Shown: one piece after another, positions 698 through 11,845 of the stretch | Numbering within the stretch: the stretch's first letter is position 1 | How the letters are laid out: each line of letters begins with the position of its first letter | IMG/VR virus record: IMGVR_UViG_3300042894_004766 | Location: 1 to 64,000 of that record | DNA length: 64,000 bases | From: a virus | Reading direction: 5' to 3' (one strand) | Position numbers and translations under genes: made by a program | The notes under the pieces: model-generated | Told to the model about the DNA's origin: nothing | The model's input: the letters and a program-made list of their open reading frames with translations, nothing else | Databases searched by the model: none

Positions 698-775
698 TGA
701 CCGAAGTTGGGTTCGAGCCAACAACTAGCGTTACTTCTATTTCAAGAATACTACTTTACATTAAGTTACCCGGCC
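698..775 (-). tRNA. Degenerate tRNA-like element, isotype unclear
   Basis: Acceptor GGCCGGG/TTCGGTC (three G-U pairs), D arm ACTT/AAGT, T arm GTTGG CTCGAAC CCAAC, irregular anticodon arm TTCT TGAAAT AGAA. Confidence 0.55.
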
Positions 776-1886: not shown

Positions 1887-2951
1887 TTATCCTGAAATGT
1901 ATCTAAATAGTAGAAATAGTCCACAAGATAATGCAATTGTAACTGGTAGCGTAAGAATCCACGCAGATAGTATTGTTTTTATTGTTTTTGTTTTTAAATT
2001 ATTTACTCCTTTTGAAGCAACCATTGATCCTGCAATACCAGAACTTAGTATGTGTGTTGTTGATACTGGTAGTTTAAGTGCAGTTGATAACCCAATCGTA
2101 ATTGCAGCAACTAATTCAGAAGAAGCTCCTTGGGCATAGGTTAAATGTTGTTTACCTATTTTTTCTCCAATAGTAACTACAATTCTTTTCCATCCAATCA
2201 TTGTTCCTAATCCTAATGAAGTAGCAATCATCCACATAACCCACATTGGTGGATTCTCAACACTTTCTAATGTAAAGTAAGCTGGTAAGAAAGCTATAAG
2301 AATAATCATAGCTAAACCAACTCCTTTTTGGCCGTCATTTCTTCCGTGAAAGAATGATACTAATGTACAAGTTGATATAAGTGTTGCTCTAATCCAAAAA
2401 GGAGGTGGTGTATCGCCTTTAGGTTCTTCAAATACATCTTTTCTTTTAATAACTTTGTTTAGAAACCACATTAAAAGTATAACCATAGTGAATCCTAATA
2501 AAGGTGAGAAAAATAGAGCTTTTCCTATATCAATAATTTTATCCCAATTTGTGTAATCTACTCCTGTTATAATAGAATAACCAACACTTACTCCTATAAT
2601 TGAACCAATTAAGGTATGAGAAGAAGAAGCTGGAATTCCTTTGTACCAAGTTGCTAAATTCCAAAAAATTGCAGTTATAAGAACTGACATAACCATTCCC
2701 ATCGAGTGATAGATGTTGGTATCTGTAAGTAATTCTTTAGGAATAAGTGTTACAATACTTAAAGCAACACCTACTCCACCCGTGATAAGACCAAGAAAAT
2801 TCATAATTCCTGACCAAACAACTGCTTGTTTAGGCTTTAAAGACTTTGTATAGATTACAGTGGCAACTGCATTTGCAGTATCATGAAATCCATTAACGAA
2901 TTCAAAGATACAAACCGCCAGTAAAGCTAAAATTAGCAAAGTTGTTAACAT
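1887..2951 (-). CDS. pitA: Inorganic phosphate transporter (PiT/PHO4 family)
   Basis: NGFHDTANAVAT, PASSSH, HGRNDGQK and PVSTTH motifs. Confidence 0.93.
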   Translation of the reverse strand: MLTTLLILALLAVCIFEFVNGFHDTANAVATVIYTKSLKPKQAVVWSGIMNFLGLITGGVGVALSIVTLIPKELLTDTNIYHSMGMVMSVLITAIFWNLATWYKGIPASSSHTLIGSIIGVSVGYSIITGVDYTNWDKIIDIGKALFFSPLLGFTMVILLMWFLNKVIKRKDVFEEPKGDTPPPFWIRATLISTCTLVSFFHGRNDGQKGVGLAMIILIAFLPAYFTLESVENPPMWVMWMIATSLGLGTMIGWKRIVVTIGEKIGKQHLTYAQGASSELVAAITIGLSTALKLPVSTTHILSSGIAGSMVASKGVNNLKTKTIKTILSAWILTLPVTIALSCGLFLLFRYISG

Positions 2952-3001
2952 AAAGTTATTTTTTAATGTATAGTTTTTAAAATTAAAAAGTTTAAAAAGT
3001 A

Positions 3002-3188
3002 AGTGAGCTTAGCCGCGATTTTGTTTTATCCTATCATTTATCTTTGCATCAACCCGTTCTCATAGGGAAACCGACACCCTCAAACTGTTTGACTTGCTAC
3101 TTCCTTAGTACAATCGACGTTAGTCTCCTAAGTTAGGTTTTGTAGTCGCGAACTTCCTCTGTTTCCAGCGATAGGTTCTCTGCTTACT
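3002..3188 (-). ncRNA. rnpB: Minimal RNase P RNA (catalytic domain; highly reduced specificity domain)
   Basis: P1 AGTAAGC/GCTCACT, P2 CCTATC/GATAGG, P3 CTG GAAA CAG, P4 GAGGAAGTTCGCGA / AACAAAATCGCGGCT with bulged U, P5 CTAC/GTAG, P6 AAACC/GGTTT, AGCAAG and AGATAAATGAT conserved segments; TATATTTG promoter at ~3207-3214. Confidence 0.85.
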
Positions 3189-3254
3189 AAGCTATTTTTA
3201 ATTTTTACAAATATACTAATTTTTTATTTAATATATAAAAGAAAAAATATAATT

Positions 3255-3677
3255 ATGAAAAAAATATTTAATACTTTTATAACAAACAAGTGGCATTTAC
3301 ACTCTTTAACATTACCTGCTTGTATATTGTGGGTATGGTTAATGGTTACTTATGACTTTTTAGATTTAAGAGATACTGGAAAATTCTTTCATGTATTTCT
3401 TTGTACATTTTCATCTGCTGCAGTAGCATTTGTAGTTGAATGGATACAAGGTGTATTCTTTGGTGCGAATAAAACACCTGAGCAGGTAAAAGCTAGTAAC
3501 TTAGATATGTTGGTTTCTACAGTTGCAGGTTTTGTTGGTGCTTTATCGGCAGTTATTTTCCCACCTTCTACCACACTTGCTTGGTTATCTTTAGTTATAA
3601 TTACTTTATTGGAGTTATATAGAAGAAAGTTTATTTTAAAGAAGAAAATTTTAAATGTTAAAGACATTAAGTTCTAA
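3255..3677 (+). CDS. Membrane protein (about 4 TM helices)
   Basis: Hydrophobic segments; AATATATA motif upstream. Confidence 0.7.
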   Translation: MKKIFNTFITNKWHLHSLTLPACILWVWLMVTYDFLDLRDTGKFFHVFLCTFSSAAVAFVVEWIQGVFFGANKTPEQVKASNLDMLVSTVAGFVGALSAVIFPPSTTLAWLSLVIITLLELYRRKFILKKKILNVKDIKF

Positions 3678-3707
3678 AAAAAACCCACTCATTTGAGTGG
3701 GTTTTTT
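3677..3707. terminator. Bidirectional intrinsic terminator (ACCACTC/GAGTGGT family; relatives at ~7047-7078, 23406-23430, 33128-33152, 43644-43674)
   Basis: A-tract, CCCACTC ATTT GAGTGGG, T-tract between convergent genes. Confidence 0.85.
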
Positions 3708-3708
3708 A

Positions 3709-3918
3709 TTATCCTCCATATGCTTCGATTATATAACCATGTCTAACTCTAAAGTTTATTCTATTAGGATTAGCATCCATATCTAACATTTTTGCTTGAC
3801 CATTTTCTTCTGTTATTCTTACTGTAAATCCACCATCTTGTGCATACTGTGTTGCTTCTTCGATAGTTTTACCCTCATACTCTCCTTGAGTAATTAAGCC
3901 AAAATTTCTTAATGCCAT
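3709..3918 (-). CDS. Putative I78/I13-type protease inhibitor-like protein
   Basis: MLDMDANPNRINFRVRHGYIIEAYGG resembles the TMDYRPDRLN...G pattern. Confidence 0.5.
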   Translation of the reverse strand: MALRNFGLITQGEYEGKTIEEATQYAQDGGFTVRITEENGQAKMLDMDANPNRINFRVRHGYIIEAYGG

Positions 3919-3981
3919 AATTTTATTTTTTATTTTATACAAAAAAAGATAAACAAAGTTTATCTTTTATAATTTGTGTTT

Positions 3982-4821
3982 CTATCTTTTAAATTCATCA
4001 AATTTTAAAAGTTTTGACTCAACTACTACTTCTTTCGCAGTTGTACCACCTCTTCTTTCCATTGCTTTCCATTTCTTATCTAAGAAAGCTAACTTAGCTT
4101 TATCGATTTTGCAGTTTCTATCTGAAATGTTTCCTTCGTTGAAAAGTGCAATCATTTCATCAATACTTAATGTAGGGTGTTTTTTATCAAACAATGGATC
4201 TGGATGTGACCAACCAAATTTAAGTAACCAGTTTAACATAGCAGCCTTACTGAAGTCTTTGTAGTCTTCTGTTGTACCGTTACCTTTTCTCTTAGATAAT
4301 TTAGCATTACCTTCAAAAAGTAAACCAGCATGTGTAATAACTGGAAATGGTTTGTCTCCTTCAACTTCACAAATCTTATCCCAGATTAAGTGTTGTTTTA
4401 CCTCATTTGCAATGTGGTCAACACCTCTGATGATGTTAGTTACATCATAATCATAATCATCTAAGATTGAACAAAAGTTATAAGTAGGAAATCCGTTATT
4501 TCTAAGGATAACCATTGAGTACTCTCCCATATCTAACTCGTAACCATTCTCAGTTTTAGTACCGATTTTTTCAGCTACTTCTTTATAACGGTCTAATCTT
4601 TCGGACTGTCTGAATGTGATGTCATGATCTAATCCAAACTCTGCCATTTGATCATAGATATAGTCAATCCATTCTGGTTTATTTCTTTCTTGATCGGTAT
4701 CATCAATTCTTAAAATGAATGTACCGTTATTAGCTCTTGCTTGAAGCCAAGCAAGTAATGCTGTACGTAAGGTTCCTAAATGAAAGAATCCAGTTGGAGA
4801 GGGTGCTACTCTTGTTACCAT
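3982..4821 (-). CDS. Truncated glutamyl-tRNA synthetase-like protein (catalytic and SC-fold domains only)
   Basis: RVAPSPTG-HLGT, RIDDTD, RQSER, IIRGVDH, KLSKR, FGWS; 279 aa, no anticodon-binding domains. Confidence 0.9.
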   Translation of the reverse strand: MVTRVAPSPTGFFHLGTLRTALLAWLQARANNGTFILRIDDTDQERNKPEWIDYIYDQMAEFGLDHDITFRQSERLDRYKEVAEKIGTKTENGYELDMGEYSMVILRNNGFPTYNFCSILDDYDYDVTNIIRGVDHIANEVKQHLIWDKICEVEGDKPFPVITHAGLLFEGNAKLSKRKGNGTTEDYKDFSKAAMLNWLLKFGWSHPDPLFDKKHPTLSIDEMIALFNEGNISDRNCKIDKAKLAFLDKKWKAMERRGGTTAKEVVVESKLLKFDEFKR

Positions 4822-8601: not shown

Positions 8602-9525
8602 TTATTGTTTATTTTTTAATAAGTTTAAAACTTGTTTACCTCTTTTATCTAATTGTTTGTATTTTATTTTAAATGAAGTACTTTCAATACCACCAAATAT
8701 CGCTGCATTAGAATGTAATTCACAAAGTGATGTTACTAATAGTGTAAAAACGGTTTCGATTGAGTTTTTTGTAACAAAGTCTTCTACTTCATCTGATTTA
8801 ATAGTATGAAATACCATATCTTTTAAGATTAAATCTGCAACTACTTTGTTATCAGAAATCTTAGAGAATGTATCAAATGATACTTGTGCGTGGTTTGGAA
8901 AGTGTCTTTTACCTTCTTCATCAATTATCATACAATATGCCTTCCCACAATCGTGCATTACTTGATATTCCTTAATATCTTCTAATGAATGTAAGTTGTT
9001 AAGTATAAACTCTTTATTATCTGTAAACCAAGTAGGTAACTTCCATTCAAATACTGGATTACTACTAGTTAAATCGTTAAAATACTTATTGACAGATATG
9101 CCGTGATCTAGTACACTTTGTGTATCAGTTTGAGGTGTATCAATCATATCAGAGATAACTTTCTCGTATGTTAGTTTTGATTTTTTACCTAAAAGTGGAA
9201 GATATGAAACTTTCTTTCTGACATCTTTATCTGCGTATAAACAAATAGATGTAAGTTCATCGTTTAAATCTGGTTCGTAAAATTTTGTGACTGAGGTAAG
9301 TTTGGATAACTTTAAGTATAAGTCATTTAATTCTTTTTCATTGTTTACTTGTAAACAGATGATAGAATTAGATGTAGTTTTCCATTCTTTAAATTGTTGT
9401 GGAAACTCGTATGCGAAGTCTGCAATTGAGTGTGTTGATTGTTGGCTCTGATAGCCTGGAGTTAAATCACTTCTAGTGATAACTACTAATTTTGCTTGGT
9501 CTTTGTTAATCTAAGTCATTGTCAT
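8602..9525 (-). CDS. Pth2-like peptidyl-tRNA hydrolase fused to an HD domain, with an in-frame TAG at 9511-9513
   Basis: Frame is open from 9510 to 8602: KLVVITRSDLTPGYQSQQSTHS...FYEPDL...LPLLG (Pth2-like), then HDCGK...HFPNHA (HD). The upstream ATGs (9525, 9519) are separated from it only by TAG. Confidence 0.8.
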
Positions 9526-9527
9526 AA

Positions 9528-9713
9528 TTATTTATTATTTTTTAAAAATTGTTGTTCTTTTTTAGTTAGACTCTTCATACCTTTTTCTGAAATTTTATCC
9601 AGTATTCGATTTAATTCGTCTTCTTTTTCTTTTCTTATTGAGTTAAATTCATAATCATCAATAAGTCGTTTTTCAACGTTTGTTTTAAATAGTTTTTTAA
9701 ACCAACTTAACAT
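9528..9713 (-). CDS. Small protein with DUF6576-like C-terminus
   Basis: LNRILDKISEKGMKSLTKKEQQFL. Confidence 0.65.
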   Translation of the reverse strand: MLSWFKKLFKTNVEKRLIDDYEFNSIRKEKEDELNRILDKISEKGMKSLTKKEQQFLKNNK

Positions 9714-9736
9714 TGTTTATATATTAAATTTTTTTG

Positions 9737-9802
9737 TGGCTCTGGAGGGGAATGATCCCTCGTCTTCTGGTTTTAGAGGCCTTAGACTAACCATACAAAG
9801 CC
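9737..9802 (-). ncRNA. D-arm-defective tRNA-like RNA with CUA (amber) loop remnant and 11-nt segment complementary to the Pth2 amber site
   Basis: GGCTTTG TA TGGTTAGTCTAAGGC CTCTAAA ACCAG AAGAC GAGGG ATCATTC CCCTC CAGAGCC A; own TATCTTTG promoter (9814-9821) and TTTG (9841-9844). Confidence 0.75.
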
Positions 9803-9845
9803 GTTTTGTTTTACAAAGATACAACTAATTTTTAATACACCAAAT

Positions 9846-10055
9846 TTATTCTTGTTTTTTTAAATCTTCAATTGCTAACTGTTCTAATGTTTGTGGATTA
9901 TGTTTCCAATTTTTCCAAACTTCAAAATCTTTTAATCTTTCTAATGTTTCTTTTGGAATTAGAACAAACCCATCTGGTGCTACTGCACCAAATTTATGGT
10001 AATGTGCATTCTTAATTTTTTCTTTGATTTCTTCTGTAATATTTCTTGGGCTCAT
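9846..10055 (-). CDS. Hypothetical protein
   Basis: 69-aa ORF. Confidence 0.6.
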   Translation of the reverse strand: MSPRNITEEIKEKIKNAHYHKFGAVAPDGFVLIPKETLERLKDFEVWKNWKHNPQTLEQLAIEDLKKQE

Positions 10056-10350
10056 CTTGTTTTTTAATATCTATTGTCTCAACTTTTTTAAATTTTAATA
10101 ACCACCTATATAATTTAGGTGATATTATAAATATTACTTTCTCTATATTTGTTCTCCATACATTTTCCCAAGTACCAACATTACAAGTATTACACTCTTT
10201 ATTATATTGTTGATGTGCACTACATATTGAAAACCATCTTTCTTTCCAAAAGAATTTACCTTTGTCTCTCATATAGAATTTATCTAAAAAATCATTTATT
10301 CTTTTGTTTACTACTTTATCATTAGTAAAGTGTTTTTTATGTCTATCCAT
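10012..10350 (-). CDS. Hypothetical protein, possibly Zn-binding (CSAH...CNTC)
   Basis: 112-aa ORF. Confidence 0.6.
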   Translation of the reverse strand: MDRHKKHFTNDKVVNKRINDFLDKFYMRDKGKFFWKERWFSICSAHQQYNKECNTCNVGTWENVWRTNIEKVIFIISPKLYRWLLKFKKVETIDIKKQDEPKKYYRRNQRKN

Positions 10351-10394
10351 CCCATCTTCTCCCTCATTTGTAAGTTATATCTAAAAAATGATAT

Positions 10395-11648
10395 TTAGTT
10401 TAATTTAGCTCTGATTCCGGGCATATAAATCTCAATCAATTGTATCAATTCTTCTTTACACTCTGGAGTCAATGATTTATTTTTATTTTGATTCAACAAA
10501 ATCATAAATGAACTTACAACTTTATTAAATTTAAAGGCATCTGTAAAGTCAAATATAGTTTTCTTAAATGATTCTATATCAATAGTTTCTTCACCTGTTT
10601 TATCCAACCAAGTTTTCATTCTATTTATAAATCTTCTAATTCCAATTATATTTTCATCAGACCAAGAACCACCATCAAAGTAGTGACCAATAAACATCAA
10701 GTAAAATCTGATTTCATCTGGATCATATCCATCCAAACTAACTACATTTCCCTTTGATTTAGACATCTTTTCACCACCATTCAATATCATTCCTTGGTGT
10801 ACCAACTTATTAATTGGTTCTTCAAAGTCAATAAATCCAATATCATACAAAAACATTGTGATAAATCTAATATAAATCAAGTGCATACAAGCATGTTCTG
10901 AACCACCAACATACAAATCAACTGGTTTTGGTTTAATACCTTTCATCAAACAATAGATAATAGTATAAATAGAACTATCTACGAATGTGTCCATTGTATC
11001 TGTCTCACCTTCAATAGGAATAGGGCAACCCCAACTTCTTTGTCTTGATACACACCAGTCGTGTTGATTTTCCAACCAATTTCTTTGTGACTTTATTGTA
11101 GATTCTGGAAAGTCAATCTTATCCAAACCTGCAATCAATCTATCTTTATAATCTGTGATTTTGAAATACCATTGATTCAATGTTTTCTTTTCTACTTCTG
11201 TAGAACATCTTTCACATTTACCATCTTTTACTTGTTCTCTTGCCAATACAGTTTCACAACTGTTACAGAAGTCAACTTCACCATCTTTCTTATAAGCCAA
11301 ACCTTTATCATACAATTGTTTAAACAACCATTGTGTGTACTCAATATAGTTAGGATCCGAGGTAATCAACATTTCCTCGTATTGAGTATTCATGTTATCC
11401 ATCTGTATTCTAAAATTTTCTATATTTTCGTAGGTAACTTCTCTTGGATCTCTACCTACTTTTTTTGCATAGTTTTCTGCTGGCAAACCATGACTATCAT
11501 ATCCAAAGGGTTGAAAAACTTGTTCACCTTTATATCTCAAGTATCTACAGTAACTATCCATAATCGCATAGTTATACCAGTGTCCACAGTGCAAACCACT
11601 CCCAGAAGGATATGGGAAAAATGTTGCAATATATTTATAATCTTTCAT
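10395..11648 (-). CDS. Minimal leucyl-tRNA synthetase-like protein (no CP1 editing or C-terminal domain)
   Basis: FPYPSGSGLHCGH, GYDSHGLPAEN, QWYFKIT, DWCVSRQRSWGCPIP, TMDTFVDSS, KMSKSKGN. Confidence 0.9.
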   Translation of the reverse strand: MKDYKYIATFFPYPSGSGLHCGHWYNYAIMDSYCRYLRYKGEQVFQPFGYDSHGLPAENYAKKVGRDPREVTYENIENFRIQMDNMNTQYEEMLITSDPNYIEYTQWLFKQLYDKGLAYKKDGEVDFCNSCETVLAREQVKDGKCERCSTEVEKKTLNQWYFKITDYKDRLIAGLDKIDFPESTIKSQRNWLENQHDWCVSRQRSWGCPIPIEGETDTMDTFVDSSIYTIIYCLMKGIKPKPVDLYVGGSEHACMHLIYIRFITMFLYDIGFIDFEEPINKLVHQGMILNGGEKMSKSKGNVVSLDGYDPDEIRFYLMFIGHYFDGGSWSDENIIGIRRFINRMKTWLDKTGEETIDIESFKKTIFDFTDAFKFNKVVSSFMILLNQNKNKSLTPECKEELIQLIEIYMPGIRAKLN

Positions 11649-11845
11649 TTCTTTGTTTTTTTCTTGTAAAGTGACTTGTGTCAATTTTTAATTTTTTAAT
11701 TATTCTATAAATTTTACTTTCAATTAGTTTTGTGTGTTCTTGTTGTATATTTGTACAAATATCTTTACTATCCACTATGTTCCCTACTTATATTTTTAAT
11801 TTAAGCTTAGTTGCAAATATAATAATTAAATTTAATATATAAACT

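Follow-up and report, generated by a model that had tools for sequence, protein, structure and literature searches.

The RNA subunit of RNase P is generally treated as a strictly cellular and organellar gene. In its bacterial type A form (rnpB, as in E. coli M1 RNA and Rfam family RF00010), a catalytic domain is accompanied by a specificity domain (S-domain), P7-P14 with the elbow-binding module CR-II/CR-III. In E. coli and T. maritima, the active site comprises P4, with its bulged U, and J2/4. P18 normally docks on the S-domain. The contributions of the S-domain, P18, and P6 have been studied so far mostly by engineered deletions. When the S-domain is removed from E. coli P RNA by engineering, cleavage continues at the correct site but is ~120-fold slower (PMC5839562). 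This C-domain RNA is strongly stimulated by the C5 protein and requires a P6-like pairing, and P18 is dispensable (PMC5839562).

A natural loss of most of the S-domain is described for the archaeal type T RNA of the Thermoproteaceae (Pyrobaculum, RF02357), which also has a 3-bp P2, a shortened P15, a 2-nt P5/P15 linker, and archaeal proteins (PMC3579882). The literature searched contains no natural RNase P RNA of the bacterial type that lacks a specificity domain. Among viruses, the only earlier claim found in that literature is the RNase P-like RNA of camelpox virus and other orthopoxviruses, which does not process pre-tRNA in vitro and has been discussed as a possible decoy (PMC3001073). Theta (HDV-like) ribozymes near phage tRNAs tie phage ribozymes to the maturation of the phage’s own tRNAs (PMC10879173). 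These are small RNAs that self-cleave in cis on 3' trailers, and their fold is unrelated to RNase P (PMC10879173). Full-text literature searching turned up no RNase P RNA encoded by a phage, and phage RNase P RNAs are not mentioned in a 2024 historical review or a 2026 evolution paper.

The stretch of DNA analyzed here (the window, 64,000 nucleotides) belongs to an IMG/VR virus contig of 99.8 kb that is rated 17% complete. Its minus strand carries a conserved structured RNA that is homologous to the catalytic domain of type A RNase P RNA. The original prediction had placed at 3002-3188, on an unnamed strand, an RNase P RNA of ~187 nt, about half the bacterial size, with P1-P6 and the P15 region identifiable and with P18 and most of the S-domain missing. 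This description held, and the catalytic domain is intact. The position was approximately right, the strand is minus, and the RNA runs from 3187 to 2999 over 189 nt; catalysis itself is inferred. The features of the RNA are as follows, all on the minus strand.

2999-3187, minus strand: whole mini RNase P RNA, P1 to P1, 189 nt, matched by the custom covariance model R1
3178-3187, minus strand: 5' strand of P1, GUAAG..GAG, pairing with CUC.CUUAC at 2999-3007
3187-3183 and 3180-3178 with 3007-3005 and 3003-2999, minus strand: P1 helix
3170-3175, minus strand: 5' strand of P2, CCUAUC, with its partner GAUAGG at 3030-3035; 6 bp
3159-3168, minus strand: P3 stem of 3 bp with a GAAA loop (CUG-GAAA-CAG)
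3145-3159, minus strand: CR-I, GAGGAAGUUCGCGAC, which includes the 5' strand of P4 and matches the RF00010 consensus GAGGAAAGUCCGGgC
3154-3146 with 3018-3011, minus strand: P4, AGUUCGCGA with UCGCGGCU, bulged U at 3152
3142-3145 with 3097-3100, minus strand: P5, CUAC with GUAG
3136-3140 with 3068-3072, minus strand: P6 pseudoknot, AAACC with GGUUU of the P17 loop
3101-3135, minus strand: S-domain remnant, 35 nt between P6 and the 3' strand of P5
3094-3096, minus strand: J5/15, the CAA of an invariant GCAA; the RF00010 consensus is also GCAA
3048-3093, minus strand: P15-P16-P17 arm, with P15 GUCA/UGAU at 3093-3090 and 3051-3048, and P16 and P17 within 3085-3056
3055-3052, minus strand: GGGU internal loop; RF00010 consensus CGGGUa
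3010-3045, minus strand: CR-IV and CR-V, in which AAAGAUAAAUG links P15 to P2 and is followed by AUAAAACAAAA and then by the 3' strand of P4, UCGCGGCU

Except for P18, the catalytic domain is a complete type A domain, with P1-P6, P15-P17, CR-I, CR-IV, and CR-V. It shares with bacterial type A RNA the layout of P1-P6 and P15-P17, the P4 and P6 pseudoknots, a 6-bp P2, CR-I, CR-IV, CR-V, the bulged U of P4, the GCAA of J5/15, and the GGU loop. Measured against the defining features of RF00010, the P4 pseudoknot between CR-I (GAGGAAAGUCC...) and CR-V (ACAGAA..CGGCUUA), with its bulged U, is present as GAGGAAGUUCGCGAC plus ACAAAAUCGCGGCUA. P1, P2, and P3 are nested and P5 follows in the canonical order, and the terminal loop of the P15-P16-P17 arm forms P6 after P5. 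The GGU in the P15/P16 loop, the adenines of J5/15, and the conserved active-site nucleotides of P4 and J2/4 are also in place; their function is inferred from work on E. coli and T. maritima. We map J5/15 onto A248/A249 of E. coli M1 RNA, adenines that touch the base preceding the cleavage site, and the GGGU loop onto the bacterial RNase P GGU that pairs with the tRNA 3'-CCA.

The core motifs GAGGAAGUUCGCGAC, GCAA, CGGGU, AGAUAAAUG, and ACAAAAUCGCGGCUA agree with the RF00010 consensus, which was taken as printed by cmscan for a relative. Motif by motif, the window RNA and RF00010 read as follows.

GAGGAAGUUCGCGAC in the window RNA, GAGGAAAGUCCGGgC in RF00010
GUAGCAAGUCAAACAG in the window RNA, GgaGCAAggccAAAUAG in RF00010
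CGGGUUGAUGC in the window RNA, CGGGUaggccGC in RF00010
AAAGAUAAAUGAUAGG in the window RNA, CuAGAugAAUGgccgc in RF00010
AACAAAAUCGCGGCUA in the window RNA, aACAGAACCCGGCUUA in RF00010

CR-IV and CR-V together match the consensus AGAugAAUG ... aACAGAACCCGGCUUA. Unlike type A RNA, the phage RNA is virus-encoded, is not recognized by the Rfam model, and has 189 nt compared with the 367 positions of the RF00010 consensus, without P8-P14, CR-II/III, and P18. Its P4 is also rewritten and is one A-U pair shorter (GAGGAA-GUUCGCGA / UCGCGGCU-A). The P4 strands named in the original prediction held, as AGUUCGCGA and UCGCGGCU with a bulged U.

The secondary structure was evaluated on a seed alignment (A1) of 22 sequences, 53-97% identical to the window RNA, which were chosen for P2 and P4 pairing and include the window locus. 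In this alignment, 92.4% of cells pair, compared with 33-44% when the partners are slid by 1-3 columns. Two-sided changes occur at 41 of the 51 pairs, and none of 500 shuffles reached the observed values. P1 has two-sided changes at all eight of its pairs (80% of cells paired). P2 and P3 are paired in 100% of cells, with covariation at 5/6 and 2/3 pairs, respectively, and P3 is far longer in relatives. P5 is likewise paired in 100% of cells, and three of its four pairs covary. The corresponding fractions are 98% for P15, 96% for P16, and 80% for P17, with covarying pairs in each. Because P2 pairing was a criterion for selecting the seed and is part of R1, the R1 alignment is no independent test of P2.

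R1 contains the nested helices only and leaves out P4 and P6. Since seed selection demanded P2 and P4 pairing, P4 and P6 were tested separately on an independent alignment (A2). Its source was 99 loci collected with a pattern that is confined to J15/16-J15/2 and does not depend on P4; 42 of them match R1. In these 42 relatives, the unmodelled P4 and P6 together pair in 95.4% of cells, compared with 23-44% for slid partners, and 113 cells carry double changes. P4 is paired in 94% of cells with five covarying pairs, and P6 in 97% of cells with covariation at all five pairs. The P4 variants found across relatives include GUUCGCGA/UCGCGGCU, GGUCAGGA/UCCUGCCU, ACUCCACA/UGUGGGUU, and the canonical AGUCGGGA/UCCCGCUU. 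The bases that are invariant in the 22 seed sequences are A35, A36, the bulged U38, G93-C94-A95-A96, G136-G137-U138, and bases of CR-IV/V. As a separate observation, a subfamily of A2 (L156, L194, L140, and L185) has the P4 strands GAGGAAAUUGGUGCC and ACAGAAGUCCAAUUA, in which the usual bulged-U register is unpaired and the bulge has apparently moved.

The S-domain with CR-II/CR-III is the one RF00010 feature named above, besides P18, that the window RNA does not provide. Between CUAC and GUAG of P5 lie 41 nt, in agreement with the ~40 nt estimated originally. The stub that remains folds into a P7-like stem of 5 bp, CUUAG/CUAAG (3132-3128 with 3108-3104), an asymmetric conserved internal loop (G,A / G...A), and a 3-bp hairpin, GAC-UAAC-GUC (3125-3116), which the stem encloses. 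In the seed alignment, the stem is 87% paired and four of its five pairs covary. Stub positions G62, G63, A64, G65, G75, A81, and C82 are ≥90% conserved in the 22 sequences. A TTAG-GAGA-CTAA hairpin proposed earlier for this region failed as a conserved fold. This UUAG-GAGA-CUAA pairing is possible in the window sequence alone, and it was rejected in favor of the covarying CUUAG/CUAAG stem around GAC-UAAC-GUC, which the relatives support. The absence of P18 held. No P18 hairpin lies between P15 and P2 in the window RNA, where only GC separates the 3' strand of P15 from AAAGAUAAAUG; the relatives L085 and L120 have one or two hairpins at this position.

R1 matches the window locus at 202.8 bits (E ~1e-52) over 2997-3189, model positions 1-202. 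This score arises by construction, as the locus is part of the 22-sequence seed. A search of the entire 99.8-kb record with R1 returned a single match, at the mini RNase P RNA locus. By contrast with R1, the Rfam models miss the gene. At the gathering score (100 bits for RF00010), cmscan of the window reported no RNase P family, and at E≤10 no RNase P model, RF02357 included, matched within positions 2900-3300. RF00010 also found nothing in the whole 99.8-kb record. An Infernal search with bacterial type A and archaeal type T models had been proposed as a check on the original prediction, with the lack of a covariance-model match counted toward refutation. That outcome was formally obtained, for Rfam models only. 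It is not a valid refutation, since the archaeal Rfam model missed the S-domain-less type T RNA in the same way (PMC3579882). The failure reflects the architecture of the Rfam models and is no evidence against homology. Single-sequence minimum free energy folding gave non-significant z-scores on the two strands (+0.9 and +0.5). These values carry no weight because little signal is expected from a pseudoknotted RNA.

The identification as RNase P RNA rests on helix-by-helix covariation across ~60 relatives. It also rests on the match of the core motifs to the RF00010 consensus and on a full-size sibling that RF00010 recognizes. This sibling (L012), from a phage genome of 177 kb that is rated complete, combines P18 with a full but compact S-domain and reaches 178 bits on RF00010; its CR-I and CR-V motif sequences are identical to those of the window RNA. 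Through L012, the mini forms are connected to bona fide RNase P RNA. End to end, R1 does not align to L012 and reaches only 17 bits when the filters are switched off. It is therefore the identical CR-I and CR-V, together with RF00010, and not R1, that join the mini to the full-size forms.

Family members come from many phage lineages with genomes of many sizes. The exact CR-I 15-mer occurs in 118 viral contigs, 36 of which have a matching CR-V 120-263 nt downstream on the same strand. In cellular genomes, the 15-mer has at least 119 matches, mostly in high-GC genomes. None of these has a CR-V partner within 450 nt, so they are regarded as chance matches. When deposited phage genomes were searched with blastn, relatives were recovered from LR745206.1 (635 kb) and LR756501.1 (735 kb), which are published uncultured huge phages. 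R1 matched 42 and 40 loci in two sets of other viral loci, with scores of 24-199 bits (~80 further members). In the merged, de-duplicated set (n=76), full-length members have 191-366 nt, and the window RNA (189 nt) is among the shortest. A tRNA gene on the same strand lies within 100 nt of 29 of the 76 members, and 57 of the 76 loci contain tRNA genes, with a maximum of 38 per locus. R1 gave only weak matches (≤29 bits) in ~300 bacterial genomes from two phyla, and the mini form was not found there.

One alternative is that the RNA is a decaying, functionless remnant of a captured host rnpB. This reading can point to the deletion of large ancestral parts, the lack of an Rfam model match, and the fact that no transcript evidence was obtained. 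Against it, relatives that are 53-97% identical keep every helix through compensatory change, the stub contains bases that are ≥90% conserved, and the family occurs in many phage lineages and genome sizes. A remnant is strongly disfavored by the covariation and very unlikely. A working enzyme is preferred over a relic on account of the compensatory conservation of the helices, the invariance of active-site and substrate residues, and the association with tRNA arrays.

Several described systems resemble the phage RNA in part. It resembles type T in being a natural RNA, in retaining the catalytic domain after the loss of most of the S-domain, and in escaping older covariance models. However, it does not meet the criteria of type T, as P2 has 6 bp, a CAA linker follows P5, the P15-P17/P6 arm is bacterial, and the GGU loop is present. 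The type T and phage RNAs probably represent independent, convergent reductions. Like the engineered E. coli C-domain RNA (Eco CP RPR) and the P18 deletion, the phage RNA keeps P6, on which selection is strong, and drops P18 and the S-domain. Unlike these laboratory constructs, it is a natural, conserved gene with an additional conserved stub. With the camelpox RNA it shares being virus-encoded and RNase P-like. However, the camelpox RNA comes from a eukaryotic virus and shows a loose secondary-structure likeness, whereas the phage family has the full core motifs and covariation.

Genes for a terminase large subunit and a tail sheath identify the contig as phage; the window also encodes topoisomerase II. 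Genes typical of huge phages are present in the window as well, namely a PHO4 phosphate transporter, a ClpB-like ATPase, an HD domain protein, and two aminoacyl-tRNA-synthetase-like ORFs. One of the latter (3982-4821, minus strand, 279 aa) partially matches the GluRS/GlnRS catalytic domain, and the other (10395-11684, minus strand, 429 aa) is a class I synthetase-like ORF of the Met/Ile/Leu/Val type; both are shorter than the cellular enzymes. Three near-complete genomes of 385-635 kb encode terminases 77-79% identical to that of the window. The region is present in DNA runs from several studies of lake, river, and estuary metagenomes, and runs X1-X8 contain 50-85% of the words sampled from window 2000-4200. 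The source is a freshwater giant tailed phage.

In the window, the mini RNA gene is flanked by PHO4 and an ORF of unknown function, and its neighbors are different in L068 and LR745206.1. A cis-regulatory leader of PHO4 was considered and rejected for this reason, and the RNA is regarded as an independent gene and not as the leader of a neighbor. In the clade of the window, the gene is solitary and lies outside any tRNA array. The 99.8-kb record contains only two canonical tRNAs, plus five unusual ones; a tRNA-Met lies at 255-182 of the window. In L068, whose RNA is nearly identical to that of the window, homing-endonuclease ORFs of the HNH/NUMOD4 and GIY-YIG types (9469-9888 and 10162-11568) lie on either side of the gene.

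Evidence on the transcription of the RNA is limited to flanking signals and to metatranscriptome contigs. Two sequence elements border the gene.

3208-3215, minus strand: possible -7 promoter element of the Bacteroidetes type (TAnnTTTG), TATATTTG, 21 nt upstream of P1; weak evidence
2994-2998, minus strand: run of five U directly after P1, read from the sequence, which may mark the 3' end

The motif TTTG-N17-23-TAnnTTTG also precedes nearby tRNA-like genes and several ORFs. It is not enriched in the window, with 12 occurrences observed and 6.8 expected. A scan for sigma-70-like promoters found sites no more common than in shuffled sequence, and a terminator scan found no canonical or terminator-like site. 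The Bacteroidetes-type motifs are a weak hint at a possible Bacteroidota host. Lake-water metatranscriptome contigs from runs of two studies (X17, X18, and X20) match the PHO4 gene at 100% (2594-2949, minus strand). The PHO4 gene may be expressed in nature, a tentative reading given that DNA carry-over is not excluded; X15 is probably DNA. None of the contigs lies on the mini RNA, and such contigs cannot show absence, transcript starts, or strand.

A protein partner was sought among the relatives. No rnpA (PF00825) was found in the whole 99.8-kb record (~17% of the genome), which confirms for the window, and extends to the record, the absence noted originally. Of the three closest near-complete relatives, two carry an RnpA gene (LR745206.1 and G007, terminase 77% identical to that of the window) and one does not (G008, 79%). 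The RnpA genes are located at 76444-76752 of LR745206.1 (L227) and at G007:C1:440379-440669 (L228), far from the mini RNA genes. Their products have ~100 aa, score 49 bits on PF00825, and retain an intact RNR motif, KRAVDRNRIKRLM. RnpA is absent from 10 of 12 near-complete or published whole genomes with a family member. Since only 2 of these 12 encode it, host RnpA is the likely default.

The locus likely encodes a functional, miniature RNase P RNA of the bacterial type that would be transcribed and would cleave phage pre-tRNAs together with RnpA; transcription and activity are inferred. In the proposed mechanism, the RNA would be transcribed during infection and would assemble with the RnpA of the host, or with a phage copy where one is encoded. 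The mini enzyme would then remove the 5' leaders of phage pre-tRNAs. For substrate recognition, it would rely on the acceptor stem, cleavage site, and CCA in place of the T/D elbow. The phage would gain its own supply of the enzyme and looser demands on tRNA shape. CCA is encoded in none of the phage tRNA genes that were read, so a contact between GGU and CCA would need prior 3' maturation.

Alternatively, the RNA could act as a decoy that soaks up host RnpA or competes for pre-tRNAs, throttling host tRNA maturation. The missing substrate-reading domain is consistent with this idea, as is the lack of rnpA in most near-complete genomes of the family, where the RNA must meet host RnpA. The camelpox RNA, inactive in vitro and possibly a decoy, provides a precedent (PMC3001073). 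However, the invariant bases are those of catalysis and substrate contact (the bulged U, the J5/15 adenines, and GGU), which would be superfluous in a protein sponge. Many members are also embedded in the phage’s own tRNA arrays, and some relatives encode RnpA. A decoy role is considered unlikely, and the mini-enzyme reading is retained.

If the mini-enzyme reading is correct, a conserved phage family would show that viruses carry a universal ribozyme, and sometimes its protein partner too, and would suggest that large phages assume control of tRNA 5' maturation in the infected cell. The family would also offer a natural series of minimal cores (191-366 nt sampled) that probes the roles of the S-domain, P18, and P6. 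The compact window RNA (189 nt) lends itself to structural and engineering studies of RNase P. Because Rfam models miss mini RNase P RNA genes, an annotation gap exists. The window adds one of the shortest members, from a clade with a solitary gene near tRNAs with D-loop inserts.

These tRNA-like genes lie 2.1 kb downstream of the mini RNA on the same strand, as the original prediction of neighboring tRNAs with bulky D-loop insertions had stated.

890 to 780, 573 to 476, 376 to 261, and 93 to 5, minus strand: four paralogous D-loop-insert tRNA-like genes

The four genes share the acceptor stem GGUCUGU/ACAGACU, discriminator A, a tRNA-Glu-like D-arm, and a normal T-arm. In all four, a UNCG-capped hairpin is inserted after G18G19 of the D-loop. 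One anticodon arm is normal (loop CUUCGAA, anticodon UCG), and three are enlarged. Neither ARAGORN nor Rfam detected any of the four. D-loop-insert genes recur with compensatory changes in G004 and LR745206.1, both of which carry the mini RNA.

It had been suggested that loss of the S-domain suits such tRNAs. In the T. maritima complex, the S-domain docks at the tRNA elbow, where the D-loop insert sits, which makes the idea reasonable. A corresponding rival explanation is that the RNA is an active ribozyme whose main substrates are the D-loop-hairpin tRNA-like RNAs or other phage transcripts that host RNase P handles poorly. It is favored by the proximity and shared strand of the four genes, by their conservation in G004 and LR745206.1, and by the position of the insert at the docking place of the S-domain. 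However, the family is widespread in phages with ordinary tRNA arrays (50-74 bits on RF00005), and G007 carries the mini RNA without any match to the odd-tRNA pattern. Adaptation to odd tRNAs is not needed to explain the family, as most members sit among ordinary tRNAs. The suggestion is not supported and remains a minority reading, and odd RNAs are unlikely to be the main substrates. A bolder and equally doubtful reading is that the giant-phage clade of the window has a self-contained, partly orthogonal system of tRNA maturation, in which loss of the S-domain permits non-standard tRNAs. Its parts would be the S-domain-less RNA, a phage RnpA, the aminoacyl-tRNA synthetases, and D-loop-hairpin tRNAs that host RNase P reads poorly, a combination that is likewise improbable.

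Other observations concern the same region. The D-loop-insert tRNAs and the nearby GlxRS-like gene might form an unusual charging or recoding system. A weak tRNA (698-775, minus strand, 32 bits on RF00005) follows one of the D-loop-insert genes by 4 nt. Its anticodon-loop region contains ~nine additional bases, and it is missed by ARAGORN. Finally, a repeat unit of ~65 nt occurs on the minus strand at 422-453, 644-675, 908-939, and 1107-1137 and carries TTTG-N19-TAtcTTTG, which fits the Bacteroidetes-type consensus. It precedes the tRNA-like genes at 376 to 261, 573 to 476, and 890 to 780, and the fourth copy precedes a short ORF (ATG at ~1087).
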